Assembly: GCA_965205265.1 (NCBI GenBank)
Contig: CBDBGH010000003.1
Location: forward strand, 192,001 to 256,000
Length of the DNA: 64,000 nucleotides
Source: Alphaproteobacteria bacterium
GTDB lineage: Bacteria > Pseudomonadota > Alphaproteobacteria > Bin95
Direction of reading: 5' to 3'
A model generated the notes under the pieces. That model saw only the letters and a program-made list of their open reading frames with translations. It was not told the DNA's origin and searched no databases. How positions within the stretch are numbered: the first letter of the stretch is position 1; each line of letters starts with the position of its first letter. This document shows, one piece after another, positions 13,205-61,185 of this stretch. The position numbers and the translations under genes are program-made.

Positions 13205-14983
13205 TTAGACGAGGACCATGCCTTCGGCGTCGATCTTTGCTTCCGGCTCTTCCGTGCCGCTCAGGATCATCTCGTTATGCGCCTTGCCCGACGGAATCAT
13301 CGGGAAGCAGTTTTCCATCTGCGCGACCTGCACATCGACGATCACGGGGCCGTCGGCGGCGATCATCGCATCGATCACGCTATCCATCTCGTCCGGGCGC
13401 TCCGCGCGCAGCCCCGTCCAGCCGAAGGCTTCGGCGAGGCGCACGAAATCCGGCAGGCTGTCCGTGTAGCTCTCGGAATAGCGCTCGCCATGCAGCAGCT
13501 CCTGCCACTGGCGCACCATGCCCATCCACTGGTTGTTCAGGATGAAGAGCTTGACCGGCAGCCGGTACTGCGAGGCGGTGGAAAGCTCCTGGATGTTCAT
13601 CAGGATGGACGCCTCGCCGGCGACATCGATCACCAGCGCATCGGGATGGGCGACCTGCACGCCGATAGCGGCCGGCAGCCCGTAGCCCATCGTGCCGAGG
13701 CCGCCCGAGGTCATCCAGTGGTTCGGGCGCTCGAAACGGAGGAACTGCGCGGCCCACATCTGGTGCTGGCCGACCTCCGTGGTGACGAACACGTCCTTGC
13801 GACCCGCGATCTTCGCCTGCAGGCGTTCGAGCGCGTATTGCGGCTTGATGACCTTGTCGTCCTGCTCGTATTTCAGGCAGTCGCGCTTGCGCCATTTGGC
13901 GATGTCGCGCCACCATCTTTCGATCGCGCGGTAGTCCGTTTTCCCGCCGCGCGCCGACCAGCGCCGGCGGATCGCCTCGACCGCCTTGCCCGCGTCCGCC
14001 ACCACCGGCACATCCACCATCACATTCTTGTTGATCGAGGACGGGTCGATGTCGATATGCACCTTCTTCGCATTCGGCGCGAAGCCGGTGAGGAGGCCGG
14101 TCACCCGGTCGTCGAAGCGCGCGCCGACGGCGAGGATGAGGTCTGCGCCGTGCATGGCGAGATTGGCCTCGTAGAGGCCGTGCATGCCGAGCATGCCGAT
14201 GGATTGCGGATGCGAGGCCGGGAAGGCGCCGAGCCCCATCAGCGTCTGCGTGCAGGGGAAGCCGGTCTCCTGCACCAGGCGGCGCAGTCCGCGCGCCGCG
14301 GCCGGTCCGGAATTGATCACGCCGCCGCCGACATACACCACCGGCCGTTTCGCGGTTTCGATGAGCGCCACGGCCTCTTCCACCGCCTGCGGCTCGGGGC
14401 GCGTGCGCGGCTTGTAGCTCCGGTGCTTCACCTCTTCCGGCGGCCGGTAGGCGCCGGTGGCGAATTGCACGTCCTTCGGCACATCCACCACCACCGGCCC
14501 CGGCCGGCCGCTGCGCGCGACATAGAACGCCTCGTGAATCGTCGAGGCGACTTCGTCCACGCTCCTGATGAGGTAGTTGTGCTTGGTGCAGGGCCGGGTG
14601 ATGCCGGTCGTGTCCGCCTCCTGGAAGGCGTCATTGCCGATGAGGTGCGTCGGCACCTGGCCGGTCAGGCAGACGACGGGAATGCTGTCCATGAGCGCGT
14701 CGGTGAGGCCGGTCACGGCATTGGTCGCGCCGGGTCCGGAGGTCACGAGCACGACGCCGACCTTGCCGGTCGAGCGGGCATAGCCTTCCGCGGCATGGAC
14801 CGCGCCGCCTTCCTGGCGGACGAGATAGTGGCGCAGCCGGTTCTGCTTGAAGATCTCGTCATAGATCGGCAGCACGGCGCCGCCCGGATAGCCGAAGACC
14901 GCCTCGACACCCTGATCGACGAGGGCTTTGACGATCATTTCGGCGCCGGTCATGGTCCTGACGGTCATGGTCCTGTCGGTCAT
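13205..14983 (-). CDS. ilvB: Acetolactate synthase large subunit
   Basis: FGYPGGAVLP, VTSGPGATN and TSGGLGTMGYGLP motifs; in-frame starts at 14983, 14968 and 14953. Confidence 0.97.
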   Translation of the reverse strand: MTDRTMTVRTMTGAEMIVKALVDQGVEAVFGYPGGAVLPIYDEIFKQNRLRHYLVRQEGGAVHAAEGYARSTGKVGVVLVTSGPGATNAVTGLTDALMDSIPVVCLTGQVPTHLIGNDAFQEADTTGITRPCTKHNYLIRSVDEVASTIHEAFYVARSGRPGPVVVDVPKDVQFATGAYRPPEEVKHRSYKPRTRPEPQAVEEAVALIETAKRPVVYVGGGVINSGPAAARGLRRLVQETGFPCTQTLMGLGAFPASHPQSIGMLGMHGLYEANLAMHGADLILAVGARFDDRVTGLLTGFAPNAKKVHIDIDPSSINKNVMVDVPVVADAGKAVEAIRRRWSARGGKTDYRAIERWWRDIAKWRKRDCLKYEQDDKVIKPQYALERLQAKIAGRKDVFVTTEVGQHQMWAAQFLRFERPNHWMTSGGLGTMGYGLPAAIGVQVAHPDALVIDVAGEASILMNIQELSTASQYRLPVKLFILNNQWMGMVRQWQELLHGERYSESYTDSLPDFVRLAEAFGWTGLRAERPDEMDSVIDAMIAADGPVIVDVQVAQMENCFPMIPSGKAHNEMILSGTEEPEAKIDAEGMVLV

Positions 14984-14990
14984 GGTCCTG
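14947..14990. repeat. Three 15-bp tandem repeats spanning the ilvB start
   Basis: (CGGTCATGGTCCTGW)x3. Confidence 0.85.
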
Positions 14991-15017
14991 TTTTCCGCAC
15001 TTGGAGGAAGGCGCGCG

Positions 15018-15159: not shown

Positions 15160-15605
15160 TGAGATATTTGTTCGATAATATACGATATATTTCTTAGAAA
15201 GCACTTGACATATAGTGCATGCGGAGCAATATGGAACCGGAGGAAGGAAGCAGCATCCGGAGCCGCTTCCCGCCCGCGCCGGCGCGCATGCGGAACGACC
15301 CCGATTCAGCCGACAGACGAGGTGTGTCTTGCGCCTGCCTCGCGTGCGCGCAATCAGGCGCGCGAACCGCGCCGCCGCGAAACGTGCACGGGCGGGCGCA
15401 GGCGCCGGCGCGCATTACGCGCGAATCAGGGTCCCGCCGCCAGCCGGCCGGCGACGGGGCGGACGGAACGAAACAGGAGCAAGGTGAACAACCGATGCCG
15501 AGGACAGAGAGTCGCTGGAACCGAAGGGAATACCCGCAGCCCATGCCCGAACAGGCCGCAGGATATGTGCTGAGTGCATACAGATCATGACATTCCATGA
15601 CACTC
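15160..15605 (+). repeat. Dispersed intergenic element, copy A
   Basis: Shares head, core and CATGACA tail with 27950-28500 and 60605-61185. Confidence 0.85.
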
Positions 15606-15651
15606 CGGTATGCCCCTACCGCTGTGCCGCGTTGCCTCTGCCGGAATCCGG

Positions 15652-27867: not shown

Positions 27868-27949
27868 TGCCTGCCTCCTTGCCGCCCGGACTGTAGCAAA
27901 ACCCCCGCGCCGCACAATCCGCGCGGCTGAGGCGGCATTCCCCTCCCGA

Positions 27950-28500
27950 TGTGTCATGGAATGTCATGCGATGTCATGTTCTGCATGCGTGGGGCTCATA
28001 TGCTGTAGCCGGTTCTGGCATGAAGGCCATCTATCGATCTGGCAGGGCCTTGCCCCGTTGCACGGTCGCTGGCCCTCTCCCGGCCTCTCCTGCAAGCGGG
28101 GGAGGAGAGTTCGAGCGTCCTGCCGACCTCCTCGAAACCGTATCCGTAAGCATTCTGCATGTCGTTCCTTCATCCCGTTTCGTTCCACTCCGTTCCCTTC
28201 TCCCTTCGCCCCGCCGCCGGGCTGACCGGCGCGGCGGGACCCTGATTCGCGCGTATCCTGCGCGCGCGCCCGTGCCGGCGGGGGCGCGTGTTTCGCGGCG
28301 GCGCGGCTCGCGCGCCTGATTGCCCGCGCGCGAGGCAGGTGCCGGACGCACTTCGCCTGTCGGCTGAATCGGGGTCGTTCCGCACCGGGTCGGCGCGGGC
28401 GGGAAGCGGTCCGCGCGGACTCCACTCCCTCGGACCCATCATAGCACATTTTCTGAGAATACAAGTCCTATAGAGAAATATTACTTGAATACATATCGGT
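27950..28500 (-). repeat. Dispersed intergenic element, copy B
   Basis: Reverse-complement homolog of 15160-15605; three TGTCATG units at 27952, 27962 and 27972. Confidence 0.85.
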
Positions 28501-29140
28501 ATAAACGAGGTTTGTTCCCGGCGCGCCGGGCTCTACCGTGTCGCGGACGAACTGGCGCACGGTGTCTCCAGTGGCCCTGCGGACGGCTACGGCGCGTATC
28601 CGGTTGGTCTTGCGGTCCCTTGATGTCGAGGATGGGCGCCTTGCCGCCAAGGCCGCCTCTGGAGGTCTCCTTGTGGCGTTTGGGGGAGGCGTTCTTGCGC
28701 TTGCGGCCGAAGTAGCTCTCATCGGCTTCGGCTGGGCCGGCGAACATGGAACCGGCCTCGTTCGCCCATGCCTCTCGGATGCGATGGAGCATGAACCATG
28801 CGGTCTTCAGCGTTACACCGATGTCTTTGGCGAACTGGAGAAAGGCGATCCCCTTGGGTTGGGTTATCTCCATGTGTATGGCGAAGGCCCATTTCTGCAG
28901 GGGAACCTTTGGGTTTTCGAGGAAGGATCCGACTTTGACGGAGAATGCGCGCTTGCAGTTATGGGAGGCCGAATGTCTTGCTGGCTTTAGCGGTGTTGGT
29001 GGAGCCGCAGTGTGGGCAGTATCGGCTGTCGGGCCACATGACGGATTCGAACCATGCTGCCGCGGCCTCCTCGTCGGGGAAGAGTTGTTCTAAGTGGAAA
29101 GGGCTATCACCTCCCGCTGGGTCTTGCCGTTGTCCGTCAT
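28481..29140 (-). pseudogene. IS1595-family transposase remnant, multiply frameshifted
   Basis: LFPDEEAAAAWFE..WP..CPHCGS zinc ribbon; KDIGVTLKTAWFMLHRIREA; EADESYFG; split across frames. Confidence 0.88.
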
Positions 29141-29721
29141 GGGGTGCTCTCCTGCGCCCAAGGCCCGAGCAGCTTCCGCATGTCATTGATCGCGTTTCTG
29201 GCTTCCTTCAACTTTCCACGTTCGACTGCGGGCCGCACTGTGGCGAGGAACGCAGTCCATCTTTGAAGTAATCTGCGGAATGCGATTTCGCCTTCCCCAT
29301 CCACGATATTCAGTCCTGGGCAACCGATGGAGAAATCGTTCTCCAAGGTGTTTTTCACCCGTAGAGCTAGGCTTGCCGCCATTGCTCGTTTGGTTGCGTC
29401 GGGCGGGTCAGAGAAGGCTTCTGCGAAAATCTCTTGGGCCTCTGCGACCATACGGGCATGGGCTCTAAGGCGTTGTGACGGTAGGAGGCTGATGACGAGT
29501 GCTGTGGCTACGGCGAGGCCACAGACCAGGTAGATTTCAGTCCAGCCGATGTAAGGGCCGAATACGCCGCCTTGAGCGCCACCCAAGAAGCTCATGACGA
29601 CACCGTAGAAGAAGGCGACCACGGCCCACCAGGACACGGCATCGCGCATCCAATACAGGAAGAGCGCCCCTCGTCCCCCCATGCCCCGTCTCCAACCAAA
29701 GCTGTGGCTGCATGATGGCAC
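29137..29721 (-). CDS. Hypothetical membrane protein, lower GC (start uncertain)
   Basis: 194-aa ORF with two TM segments; its stop overlaps the IS1595 ATG. Confidence 0.55.
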   Translation of the reverse strand: MPSCSHSFGWRRGMGGRGALFLYWMRDAVSWWAVVAFFYGVVMSFLGGAQGGVFGPYIGWTEIYLVCGLAVATALVISLLPSQRLRAHARMVAEAQEIFAEAFSDPPDATKRAMAASLALRVKNTLENDFSIGCPGLNIVDGEGEIAFRRLLQRWTAFLATVRPAVERGKLKEARNAINDMRKLLGPWAQESTP

Positions 29722-29830
29722 GAAATGGCACTGAACATTCGCGTTCCCTTGTTTTTCAAGAGTTTCGTTCAGTGTTCTATATAATTGAGGAATATTACCT
29801 AAATTTCATGAAAGACCGGCCTCCTGTTCG

Positions 29831-30091
29831 TCAGCCAGACCTGTCCTGTGCCCTCACATAGCTTTCGAGCACGCGATTAATTCGCGTCTGGTACCCCTTT
29901 CCCGGCGCGCGAAAGTGGTTCAGCACCGAGCGTTTGATTCGCAGCGTCACCTGTTCAGTCCGGTCCGGTTCGACCGGTTCGGCCTCGCGCCAGAAGCCCG
30001 CATCCAGTTCCGGGATGTCGCTGAAGTCTATCGCGCTGTCCTCGACGATTGCGATTTCAGCGGTTGTCAGGGGTTTTGCCTGTTCTGTCAC
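29831..30091 (-). CDS. BrnA-family antitoxin (orphan)
   Basis: IDFSDIPELD..VTLRI..F..GKGYQTRINRVL. Confidence 0.8.
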   Translation of the reverse strand: MTEQAKPLTTAEIAIVEDSAIDFSDIPELDAGFWREAEPVEPDRTEQVTLRIKRSVLNHFRAPGKGYQTRINRVLESYVRAQDRSG

Positions 30092-30195
30092 AGCATGCGG
30101 CCTGTCGTTCCGAGGAGTCGGGTATGCGGAGGCGGGGACCGGCCGCTTCTCCGACGGTCCCGAACAGCCTGTATAAGCTCCAACGGCCGGAAACC

Positions 30196-58017: not shown

Positions 58018-58116
58018 GCGGAGGCCGGCAGGCGACCCGGACCGGAAACTCGTTACGGCTGCTTCCTTCCGGACCTGACCGGGTTGGCGAGGGGTCCGCC
58101 CGCCGCCGGTCTCCGC
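58018..58116 (-). ncRNA. ffs: SRP RNA (4.5S)
   Basis: CCGGTCAGGTCCGGAAGGAAGCAGCC domain IV motif; self-complementary ends; upstream of dnaX. Confidence 0.95.
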
Positions 58117-59049: not shown

Positions 59050-59126
59050 TGGTGGGTCCGACAAGACTTGAACTTGTGACCTCCGCCATGTCAAGACGGC
59101 GCTCTAACCAGCTGAGCTACGGACCC
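59050..59126 (-). tRNA. tRNA-Val(GAC)
   Basis: GGGTCCGTAGCTCAGCTGGTTAGAGC..tt-GAC-at..GTTCAAGTC..CGGACCCACCA cloverleaf with encoded CCA. Confidence 0.96.
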
Positions 59127-59231: not shown

Positions 59232-59256
59232 CGTGTCATGATATGTCATGTTTTTG
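59232..59256 (-). repeat. Tail-only copy of the dispersed element (TGTCATG-N3-TGTCATG)
   Basis: GTGTCATGATATGTCATGTTTTTGC matches the tails of copies A-C. Confidence 0.6.
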
Positions 59257-60604: not shown

Positions 60605-61185
60605 GGATGTCATGCTTTGTCATGGTCCTCCCCGGCCGGCGTCATGAAATGTCATGTTTTGCATGCGCAGGGTTCATATGTTGCGGTCGGTTCGGGCATG
60701 ACGCCGTCCGGTTGTCGAGCTCCTCTACCGGCTCGGGGGCGGGCCGTCGCCTCGCGCGGCCGGGGCCAGGCCGCCTGAGGTCCCGGAACGGCGCTCCGCG
60801 CCGTCCGGGATGACACCGGGGGGTCAATCCTCGCCCCGGCCTCTGAGCCGGGGCCTTGTGCGGCCGGCGCGGTTGCCGTCATCGTCTCTCCTTCCCCGAT
60901 CGGGAGCGGGTCCCTGATTCCCGCGCGTATCCTGCGCGGGCGCCTCTGCGCGCGCCGGCGCACGTTTCGCGGCGGCGCGGTTCGCGCGCCTGATTGCGCG
61001 CGCGAGGCAGAGGGCGCACCTCTCCCGTCGGCTTCTCACGGGTTTTCAAAAATCGGCGCTGCGCAGCACCCGGGGACGCGGCTCCGGAGTCCGCTTCCCT
61101 TGGAACCATCATACCACACTCCGCCAGATGTCAAGACTAAAACATGAACAAAATTCATAAATATCGGAAATTGCTCATATTTCGC
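60605..61185 (-). repeat. Dispersed intergenic element, copy C
   Basis: Core at 60963-61010 nearly identical to the reverse complement of 15335-15384; two pairs of GTCATG units. Confidence 0.85.

Follow-up and report, generated by a model that had tools for sequence, protein, structure and literature searches.

A clade-restricted family of about seventy dispersed intergenic units with conserved end modules and variable cargo in an alphaproteobacterial chromosome

Phage morons are autonomous modules composed of a promoter, a gene and a terminator. The units described here are similar to morons in that a single cargo gene may be placed between a predicted promoter of its own and an end module, between unrelated genes, and in that one phage-type domain, a small-terminase (TerS) HTH, is found among the cargo. 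However, unlike morons, they lie outside prophages at about 70 copies per chromosome, share homologous modules and a long structured leader, and often have no functional cargo. Integron cassettes are arrayed beside an integrase gene and attI, and their attC sites are imperfect inverted repeats. As in integrons, the cargo of our units appears as an interchangeable single gene between conserved boundaries; unlike in integrons, the units are dispersed, each has a promoter-like region of its own, arrayed direct repeats make up the 3′ module in place of attC, and a search for an integrase link returned none. The pneumococcal BOX, rhizobial RIME and Neisseria Correia elements are modular dispersed intergenic repeats, and Correia elements, as well as MITEs, have terminal inverted repeats. 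Like BOX, RIME and Correia elements, the units are clade-specific and intergenic, occur in tens to hundreds of copies, and combine a variable middle and potential RNA hairpins with a mobilisation that is unknown or acts in trans. They differ from these repeats in being much longer, in carrying promoter-like and SD/ATG signals, in being able to hold protein genes, and in the lack of inverted ends.

Two further systems are close in particular aspects. Small terminases of the SPP1 type bind to pac at its phased direct repeats; the pac site is often located within or next to terS. The N-terminal HTH of one cargo protein of our units is profile-similar to solved DNA-binding domains of SF6-type TerS, and phased direct repeats are present at the 3′ end of the protein's own gene; unlike in the phages, the protein is encoded by seven intact copies in one chromosome and is not accompanied by a large terminase, portal or capsid partner, as judged by searches with PF03237, PF03354, PF05065 and PF04860. 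Type I toxin-antitoxin systems have long 5′ UTRs, a small hydrophobic toxin and an antisense RNA. The units are similar to these systems, and to multicopy sRNAs, in being small and multicopy, with structured leaders and tiny ORFs. However, their short peptides are basic or polar and unconstrained, no antisense partner is seen, and Rfam gives no match. In the result listings and opening parts of abstracts on Defluviicoccus or on multicopy small terminases, we found no description of such an element.

The window, that is the whole stretch of 64,000 nucleotides analysed here, contains three units, denoted A, B and C. A preliminary description made from the letters of the window reported three look-alike copies; direct reading and alignment of the copies (634 columns, 71% mean column identity) demonstrate that they are real. 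Its expectation of many copies genome-wide was borne out as well: the nhmmer search of the genome contigs with profiles built from copies A, B and C found the leader core 73 times and the tail 63 times, in every case on the chromosome contig, and the resemblance is far beyond chance. The family to which copies A, B and C belong has about 70 dispersed units and is restricted to the clade. A CATGAC end follows within 1.6 kb of the core for 60 of the 69 strong cores, and the units have a median length of 560 bp (range 0.4–1.4 kb). On the chromosome the CATGACRNNNCATGAC pattern occurs 135 times, forming 84 CATGAC clusters, and nearly all of these are accounted for by the 3′ ends of units. The units are intergenic and spread across 4.6 Mb, with strands mixed along the chromosome and no replichore or orientation bias seen. 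Multicopy matches are present in 13 of the 16 genomes of the genus; in this genome search no family match was found in G001 and G003. The repeats break short-read assemblies, and the contigs of many relatives end inside units. In a few units two 3′ modules follow one another, an unrelated insertion sequence interrupts one unit, and other insertion sequences are found repeatedly within or beside the CATGAC arrays.

The unit is built of two modules bracketing the cargo. The 5′ module comprises the AT-rich block (TTGTTC...AATATTTCT), the −35- and −10-like hexamers, often of the extended −10 type, the 5′ stem-loop, the GC-rich leader of about 200 nt with its near-invariant core, and the SD with the ATG. 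A AGAAATATTTCT-type palindrome is located upstream of the −35. In the 3′ module, the CATG blocks of the tail are about one helical turn apart and are followed by 2–6 CATGAC repeats at 10-nt spacing. This spacing places TGA stops in all three frames, and 38 of the 61 tails have a stop in every frame within 90 nt, as compared to 1.8% of random windows. The cargo between the modules seems to be exchangeable and is either an intact gene or a short or degenerate ORF, as in copies A–C. We also considered CATGA at the left edge as a general att-like or target feature and rejected it, with 10 of 68 units against a background of 4.4%, or 5 of 68 against 3.6% under strict matching, the anchor being imprecise.

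All five parts named in the preliminary description, namely the AT-rich, promoter-like stretch, the core, the SD with ATG, the middle, and the tail with CATGAC repeats, are present in A, B and C in the order given there. The same is true of their details: CTTGAC or CTTGTA follows the AT-rich stretch and precedes ATGG by 25–26 nt, TGTGnTATGAT is present in B and C, AATCAGG occurs twice within the GC-rich core, a purine-rich SD precedes the ATG, the middle parts are unrelated, and the 48-nt tail leads into the CATGAC repeats. The 5′ block CCGCTTCCCGCCCGCGCCG..GATTCAGCCGACAG, stated to be common to A and B, was also found in both.

Copy A (15162–15605, + strand) is a type-1, short-ORF member with an orthologue at the matching site of the related genome G014. 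Its AT-rich upstream block (TTGTTCGATAATATACGATATATTTCTTAG, 15162–15233) includes TTGACA at 15206–15211 and CAATAT at 15228–15233; in the G014 orthologue the TTGTTC block, the −35 and the −10 are kept and the spacer is diverged. The 5′ hairpin H1 (GGAAGCAGC-loop-GCCGCTTCC, 15246–15270) appears in the MFE fold. It is followed by the GC-rich leader core with two AATCAGG (15332–15437, nhmmer 92.8 bits), near-invariant in the alignment, by the SD and a 31-codon ORF (MPRTESRWNRREYPQPMPEQAAGYVLSAYRS, 15495–15590), which stays in frame through the tail, and by the 48-nt tail with CATGAC repeats at 15586–15591 and 15596–15601 (15542–15609; 70.6 bits for the tail). The nine homologues of the 31-codon ORF vary to the same extent at first, second and third codon positions; their codon differences are synonymous in 116 cases and nonsynonymous in 436, and the ORF is probably free of protein constraint.

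Copy B (about 27937–28505, − strand) is a type-2 member with a decayed ORF and also occurs in G014. The promoter-like region (28438–28464) contains TTGTAT at 28464–28459 and, separated from it by a 15-nt spacer, TATGAT at 28443–28438 as part of the extended −10 TGCTATGAT; from −35 to −10 the orthologue in G014 has almost the same sequence. The GC-rich leader core occupies 28234–28341 (90.0 bits). The SD and the 54-codon ORF (MQNAYGYGFEE...) are located at 27996–28160, with a REP-like hairpin inside (28110–28071); the stop is the TGA within CATATGA of the tail, the frame differs from the reading in A and C, and the N-terminus MQDAxGxxFEE is found in other type-2 copies too. The tail and three CATGAC repeats (27978–27973, 27968–27963 and 27958–27953) occupy 27954–28022 (68.0 bits), and the right-end region shows 3 differences per about 95 nt to the G014 orthologue. 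B together with the adjacent 1.7 kb is missing from the matching intergenic site in G005, G006 and G002, and the empty-site junction in G005 falls exactly at the right end of the unit, 27937. Since copy B is thus present or absent at a conserved site, units can be gained or lost.

Copy C (60605–61185, − strand) has a type-3 leader and decayed cargo; its site is occupied in G006 too, with a different middle. In the promoter-like region (61108–61134), a spacer of 15 nt separates TTGACA at 61134–61129 from TATGAT at 61113–61108, which is part of the extended −10 TGGTATGAT. Downstream, within 61055–61099, H1 (61099–61073) is followed by a terminator-like hairpin with a U-run (GGTGCTGCGCAGCGCC GATTTTTGAA, 61070–61055), which is confined to the C-type leader. 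The leader core is located at 60905–61013 (90.9 bits). The SD and the 76-codon ORF (60652–60882) come next; the ORF starts with MTATxP like the 200-aa type-3 gene described below and ends with ...MPEPTATYEPCACKT in the tail, and it is decayed cargo. The tail with two CATGAC pairs (60656–60651 and 60646–60641; 60624–60619 and 60614–60609) covers 60605–60700 (66.2 bits). The window also contains a solo CATGACATATCATGACAC pair (59233–59250, − strand) upstream of tRNA-Val, an orphan right-end remnant.

In other copies the same modules enclose genes. The cargo falls into a 300-aa TerS-like HTH protein, a 200-aa acidic protein, and short or degenerate ORFs. The TerS-like protein matches Pfam Terminase_2 at residues 11–87 (E 3.7e-13, 50.7 bits against the cut-off of 26.1) and phrog_51, and a PDB profile search gives the DNA-binding domains of SF6/SPP1-type TerS (E 1.6e-4). 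Its seven intact copies are the sole Terminase_2 matches in the genome, all above the cut-off. The dN/dS of the HTH part is 0–0.12 within the genome and 0.15–0.34 between species. The part beyond the HTH has a helical or disordered structure and occurs in this clade only; the AlphaFold model (mean pLDDT 60.3) is confident only at residues ~11–60. The 200-aa (type-3) gene is represented by eight intact copies of 195–206 aa, with a median dN/dS of 0.28 over 34 pairs. Both are genuine genes on which purifying selection acts. PADLOC and NCBIfam give no match for either protein, and many copies carry truncated or frameshifted versions of the two genes. In copies A–C only short, unconstrained ORFs are found; since the same scaffold brackets constrained genes in other copies, A–C are cargo-poor or decayed members of the cassette family.

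The preliminary description also regarded the element as a transcription unit complete in itself, in which a conserved scaffold carries a variable insert, and from its layout it looks like one. With the sigma-70 definition of TTGACA, a spacer of 16–18 nt and TATAAT, at least 4/6 agreement per hexamer and at least 9/12 overall, no promoter-like site was found in A, B or C. B and C fail because their 15-nt spacer lies outside 16–18 nt, and in A the −10 CAATAT agrees at 3/6 positions only. A looser filter (TTGnnn, 16–18 nt, nAnnnT) is passed by 40 of 69 units, in a rough scan where many hexamer assignments look wrong. At the other end, the C/G ratio of the tails is 1.2–1.4 as compared to about 0.7 upstream, and 24% of random 78-nt windows have a ratio at least as high as the median of 1.21; that the CATGAC array is a Rho-loading (rut) site can be inferred only weakly from this composition.

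Comparison between species shows how the units evolve. Copies at the four tested loci occupy orthologous sites in other species. The orthologues are mosaic with respect to G014: spacers and ORF bodies diverge, H1 and a 5′ sub-module are swapped between variants, and what is kept is the upstream block, the −35 and the −10, the core, the SD/ATG and the tail. The identity of the TerS-type units is 92–99% within the genome and 77–85% between orthologous sites of this genome and G005. Copies of one genome thus resemble each other more than orthologues do, a pattern suggestive of recombination or gene conversion. A clean empty site for the TerS-type unit at 1474844 was sought and rejected: G014 lacks the unit, the 90-nt intergenic sequence there is unrelated, and no exact junction is available.

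Hence, we suggest, with somewhat more belief than doubt, that the units are clade-specific, dispersed and insulated expression cassettes, which owe their spread and homogeneity mainly to recombination and rarely to insertion. In the proposed mechanism the units would be transcribed from their own predicted promoter. Homologous recombination or gene conversion between the modules would be the main route by which they multiply, exchange cargo and sub-modules and remain similar, accompanied by occasional insertion and loss. The CATGAC array would end translation and might also act as a protein-binding or termination site; by analogy with the phage proteins, the leading candidate for an array-binding factor would be the TerS-like HTH protein.

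The sharp boundaries of the units and the polymorphism of copy B fit true transposition equally well. The units might be non-autonomous transposable elements, MITE-like and provided with a promoter, for which an enzyme encoded elsewhere recognises the AT-rich left and the CATGAC right ends; we hold this to be possible but rather unlikely. The high copy number is in line with such elements, as are the sharp and reproducible boundaries of the seven 1.25-kb TerS-type units, the presence or absence of copy B with the junction exactly at its right end, the recurrence of other insertion sequences within or next to CATGAC arrays, and the placement of 23 of 59 units between convergent genes, where about 25% are expected from crude gene calls. 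The absence of terminal inverted repeats and of an enzyme gene inside A, B and C, noted at the outset, is confirmed: in A, B, C and one TerS-type unit no inverted repeats join the ends and only internal GC-rich pairs are found, and no transposase or recombinase is present inside the units, which contain nothing beyond the TerS-like or 200-aa ORF. No target-site duplication is seen, as the flanks of the seven 92–99% identical units have no shared direct repeat and the left junction of B is uninformative. The orthology of the four loci and the mosaic structure of the orthologues also argue against transposition, and CATGA is only weakly enriched at the left edge. The early idea of a mobile element thus survives in part: gain and loss are supported by copy B, and transposition, for which the units offer no terminal inverted repeats, target-site duplication or transposase of their own, is not.

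Alternatively, the functional product might be RNA, so that the cargo-less copies would be genes of structured regulatory RNAs or the leader would be a shared riboswitch- or attenuator-like cis-element; we consider this distinctly unlikely. In favour of it, both sides of H1 change at 5 of 9 pairs across 65 sequences, with 43 double-change cells versus 25.7 ± 4.1 in shuffles, and G-U changes are present in addition to the compensatory ones. In the orthologues the core, SD/ATG and tail are kept and the peptide is not, and the early terminator-like hairpin and U-run of the C-type leader would suit an attenuator-like element. In the assembled contigs of four public runs, the summed contig depth has its peak at the core; in the metatranscriptome among them the value at the core is very high, which is uninterpretable for a multicopy sequence and gives no strand, starts or ends. 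The thermodynamic support is mixed, with leader-fold z-scores of −2.91 for A, +0.79 for B and −1.91 for C. The predicted helices other than H1 never vary; those of the core yield no covariation because the core is invariant, which is partly a result of picking the relatives by an exact 28-nt motif. The earlier statement that no Rfam family is matched agrees with the scan of the whole window at the gathering threshold, which returned tRNA and SRP RNA only; an E-value scan of copy A produced five noise matches, the best with 18.4 bits against a cut-off of 73. The same leader precedes real protein genes. Of the proposed non-coding RNA candidate, the multicopy modular unit stands, and the simple non-coding RNA gene does not, as the scaffold brackets constrained protein genes elsewhere.

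The TerS-type HTH in the cargo and the end of its ORF inside direct repeats phased at 10 nt raise a further reading, in which the units are dispersed pac-like packaging modules, exploited by a phage or gene-transfer particle or acting as decoys against it, with cargo-less units as extra sites. The 84 arrays per 5.46 Mb correspond to a mean spacing of roughly 65 kb, which is compatible with this idea. Nevertheless, it appears very improbable: the genome has no match to the large terminases PF03237 and PF03354 or to the HK97 capsid PF05065, and the portal PF04860 gives one sub-threshold fragment, on another contig. With tblastn, the TerS-like protein has no match in 50,697 phage records, and in IMG/VR it matches four contigs only, at 28–36% identity over residues 9–92. 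Moreover, the gene is present in only 7 of 73 units, and packaging leaves the conservation of promoter, leader and SD unexplained. A broader combination of the ideas would be an integrase-free system of about 70 ‘expression sockets’, each with promoter and leader at the left and the stops in three frames with the CATGAC array at the right, which exchange and shelter cargo genes through recombination between the modules; the CATGAC arrays would be bound by the TerS-like HTH protein and serve, at about one per 65 kb, as pac-like entry points for packaging of host DNA by an incoming phage or particle, or as decoys that sabotage packaging; this proposal is speculative and we regard it as improbable.

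Finally, a merely decaying paralogous gene family, that is TerS-like and 200-aa pseudogenes with their old flanks, would account for the many truncated and frameshifted cargo versions and for the start of the C ORF, similar to that of the 200-aa gene, but is scarcely credible, because the non-coding modules are best conserved in the orthologues while the ORF bodies decay, the type-1 and type-2 units, which have neither cargo gene, keep both modules, and several copies are present in each of 13 of the 16 genus genomes.

If the units are indeed dispersed expression cassettes homogenised mainly by recombination, a clade of largely uncultured alphaproteobacteria would organise its accessory genes in a distinctive way, in about seventy homologous, promoter-equipped slots. 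Such slots, exchanging sub-modules and cargo, marking synteny breakpoints and attracting insertion sequences, would bear on repeat-driven genome rearrangement. The finding would also bear on the domestication of orphan phage-type DNA-binding proteins. The leader and the end module with stops in three frames may together amount to a portable device, of natural origin, for expressing and insulating genes in high-GC bacteria.

The three units of the window, copies A (15162-15605, +), B (27937-28505, −) and C (60605-61185, −), align over 634 columns with a mean column identity of 71%. Reading and alignment both recover, in the same order, all the parts named in the preliminary description. An AT-rich block comes first and is followed by CTTGAC (A and C) or CTTGTA (B), with ATGG 25-26 nt downstream; TGTGnTATGAT is present in B and C. 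The GC-rich core carries AATCAGG twice in each copy, and A and B have the 5′ block ...CCGCTTCCCGCCCGCGCCG...GATTCAGCCGACAG in common. After the core come a purine-rich SD sequence with ATG, an unrelated middle, the 48-nt tail and the CATGAC repeats. As described, no inverted repeat links the ends of any copy. The claim that the element belongs to no Rfam family also stands: the gathering-threshold scan of the whole window returns only a tRNA and an SRP RNA, and an E-value scan of copy A returns noise only. The SRP RNA is an ordinary bacterial small form (58019-58112, −; 57.9 bits), about 1 kb from tRNA-Val.

Many genome-wide copies had been anticipated, and profiles built from A, B and C find 73 cores and 63 tails in the host assembly (G000; 5.70 Mb, 68% G+C), all on C3, the contig of the window. 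The tail lies 57-1026 nt downstream of 54 cores; one further gap measures 3707 nt because an insertion sequence sits inside it, with ORFs that appear IstA/IstB-like in translation. There are 135 occurrences of the pattern CATGACRNNNCATGAC, grouped into 84 clusters, nearly all at unit 3′ ends, and a CATGAC-type end lies within 1.6 kb of 60 of the 69 strong cores. Unit length ranges from 394 to 1406 bp (median 560 bp); by crude gene calls, 59 units lie between convergent (23), divergent (10) or tandem (26) genes. The assembly has a contamination of 7.28% and may be imperfect. The 0.78 Mb of C3 at ~4.63-5.41 Mb contains no unit; its G+C is slightly lower (~0.665 beyond 4.76 Mb) and its cumulative GC skew is reversed. 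The units flanking it have duplicates elsewhere (366 = 4632933; 42781 = 5413773). The stretch may represent an island, a misjoin or a second replicon.

The family is confined largely to one clade. Searched with copy B, 13 of 16 genomes of the same genus give at least 14 scored matches, a further genome has a single weak match and the remaining two have none; 24 genomes outside the genus give three single weak matches only. The exact 28-nt core motif is found in 72 stretches of a collection of 185,579 species. The MAGs concerned are titled Defluviicoccus sp. or 'Alphaproteobacteria bacterium', except for two stretches on one contig of a Bryobacterales-labelled MAG and one in a MAG labelled 'bacterium'.

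Upstream of every core, rough promoter scans place the AT-rich block, a TTGACA-like hexamer and a TATGAT-, TAGTAT- or TATATT-like hexamer in this order, often with TG directly before the latter; TTGTTC and (A/T)AATATTTCT-type motifs recur in the block. None of the three window copies has a site under a strict sigma-70 scan (the hexamer spacer is 15 nt in B and C, and the −10 of A matches at only 3/6 positions), therefore we speak of a putative promoter, on grounds of conservation and resemblance. Both hexamers (−35 and −10) and the block from TTGTTC are conserved between the copy A orthologues of G000 and G014, another genome compared, while the spacer that separates the hexamers has diverged.

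The H1 hairpin lies at the start of the presumed transcript. Among 65 sequences from several genomes, five of its nine pairs change on both sides; 43 such both-side-change cells are observed vs 25.7 ± 4.1 in shuffled data, none of 500 shuffles reaches 43, and every slid control scores below the true position. The other predicted leader helices, a long-range GUGCG/CGCGC pairing and a GGCGCG-loop-CGCGCC hairpin, are invariant, in part because the relatives in the covariation test were chosen by the exact 28-nt core motif, and are neutral for or against an RNA fold. Folding of the leaders gives z-scores of −2.91 (A), +0.79 (B) and −1.91 (C). In the C-type leader, a terminator-like hairpin with a U-run behind it lies ~40-50 nt into the presumed RNA. 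We note that in contigs of the public metatranscriptome run X20 the leader core within 27938-28413 reaches a summed depth of 800-980 vs 5-20 in the flanks; with a multicopy sequence in assembled contigs, such depth is not readable as expression.

In the tail, conserved blocks with CATG lie near positions 1, 22, 36, 45 and 55, with variable spacers between them; the tail is followed by 2-6 CATGAC repeats with 10-nt spacing, often in two groups ~30 nt apart. As a 10-nt step is not divisible by three, TGA moves to the next frame with each repeat; all three frames are closed within 90 nt in 38 of 61 tails vs 1.8% of random windows. TerS-like ORFs terminate within the repeats (...HDIS*). The frame in which the tail is read differs from copy to copy, which argues against a coding constraint on it. 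A comparison of the B orthologues of G000 and G014 gives 3 differences in ~95 positions for the tail and repeats, 81% identity for the whole unit and 95-96% for the flanking genes. The rise of C over G in the tail region is compatible with a Rho-loading site, yet not exceptional.

A solo CATGACATATCATGACAC pair (59233-59250, −), with neither leader nor tail, lies ~110 nt upstream of tRNA-Val (59050-59126, −) and appears to be an orphaned right-end remnant. A second repeat or IS end, GGGGCTTATATGGATAGGTTGACAACAGG... with a GTCATACCCGGACTTGTTCCGGGTATC hairpin at its terminus, is inserted immediately behind CATGA of the repeats in at least five units (examples at C3 980247, 1205650, 1589170, 3619640 and 4009076), which suggests that it targets this motif. 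Another motif, TGGAGTGGGCCCC(TGGGGTCGGACAGT...), follows CATGAC arrays at ~14 sites on C3, out of 55 occurrences in the genome, and at 656 and 4633223 continues into an apparent insertion-sequence start. At 14948-14991 (+), three tandem GGTCATGGTCCTG units of period 15, containing the reverse complement of CATGAC, lie at the 5′ end of a minus-strand TPP-enzyme-like ORF, which would begin MTDRTMTVRTMTG.

Between the two modules, SD and ATG open one of at least four ORF types. Type 4, a terminase-small-subunit-like (TerS-like) HTH protein of 300-311 aa, has seven intact copies, the sole Terminase_2 matches in the genome. Residues 11-87 match this Pfam family at 50.7 bits (cut-off 26.1); the protein also matches PHROG terminase-small-subunit families, and its family profile matches the solved SF6/SPP1-type TerS DNA-binding domains (E 1.6e-4). 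The HTH has a dN/dS of 0-0.12 among within-genome copies and 0.15-0.34 vs two other species; the remainder has 0.2-0.5. The TerS-like ORF is a real gene. At E ≤ 1e-5 a large protein collection yields 364 relatives. Each of the 120 listed is at least 62% identical to the query over 74-100% of the query length (87-100% for most), and one bears the name 'terminase small subunit'. A tblastn search of 50,697 phage records finds nothing, and plasmids yield no match at the DNA level. IMG/VR contributes just four contigs, whose similarity covers residues 9-92 with 28-36% identity. AlphaFold models only the HTH with confidence; the remainder consists of long helices and disordered segments and has no strands, which disfavours an RNase-H-fold transposase.

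Type 3 is an acidic protein of 195-206 aa with eight intact copies in this genome and a median dN/dS of 0.28; domain and PHROG searches assign it no family, and PADLOC and NCBIfam give none for type 3 or type 4. The copy C ORF, with its type-3-like start, is a decayed version of it. Type 1, the 31-codon ORF of copy A, runs in frame through the tail. Across nine homologues the three codon positions vary equally (0.533, 0.518 and 0.477 bits), with 116 synonymous vs 436 nonsynonymous codon differences; therefore conservation here is at the nucleotide, not the protein, level. Type 2, in copy B, has a short conserved start, MQDAxGxxFEE, and then runs into REP-like hairpins. Hairpins of this kind (CTCTCCTCCCCCGCTTGCAGGAGAGGCCGGGAGAGGG and variants) occupy the variable middle in many type-2 and type-3 units, e.g. 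at 28071-28110 (−).

Over ~1.25 kb the seven units of TerS type share 92-99% identity. Their ends are reproducible, at the AT-rich block (ATTGTTC) on the left and just past the third CATGAC on the right, and they have no target duplication. Several positions are orthologous in the other species compared: the copy A site holds a unit in G014 and a decayed remnant in G005 and G007, and the units at 1474844 and 1738795 have orthologous copies in G005 and in G005 and G007, respectively. The copy C site of G006 is occupied by a unit with a different middle. Copies at orthologous sites are only 77-85% identical to those of G000, within-genome copies are more alike than orthologues, and the copy A orthologues are mosaic, with different variants of H1 and the 5′ sub-module. 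This pattern is expected of gene conversion among dispersed copies, which would be the main homogenising force. In most relatives the flanks of A, C and unit 1738795 lie on different contigs or replicons and homology to G000 stops at the unit, thus the units mark synteny breakpoints.

One site is polymorphic. Copy B, present in G014, is absent together with 1.7 kb adjoining its left end from a conserved intergenic site in G005, G006 and G002, with the right junction exactly at the unit end; thus units can be gained or lost. In G005 the entire block 27937-30171 is missing; G006 and G002 are also without copy B at this site. The left-end neighbour (28481-28873, −, up to ~30171) comprises a 194-aa membrane-like ORF and what translates as an IS1595-like transposase fragment; in G014 unrelated AT-rich DNA lies next to this end.

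We rate the family as one of dispersed modular repeats or cassettes. Its units are like the modular intergenic repeats of other bacteria in their spread, and somewhat like a phage moron or promoter-bearing gene cassette in their working. A packaging role in this genome is unlikely. Searches of G000 for large terminases of two common families and for the HK97 capsid find none, and the portal search yields just a sub-threshold fragment; the units fail the defining tests of functional terminase modules. They equally lack the TIR and TSD of MITEs and the attC and integrase of integron cassettes. Full-text literature searches returned no description of such an element in titles and abstract openings.

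We suggest that the units are transcribed from their own promoters, and that the end module, with its three-frame stop and CATGAC array, may act as a translational and transcriptional insulator or as a protein-binding site. SPP1-type small terminases bind phased repeats at pac; by analogy, the TerS-like HTH protein could be the ligand of the end module. The best-supported description is that of a clade-specific family of dispersed, self-contained expression cassettes with homologous 5′ and 3′ modules and exchangeable cargo, with copies A, B and C as its cargo-poor members.
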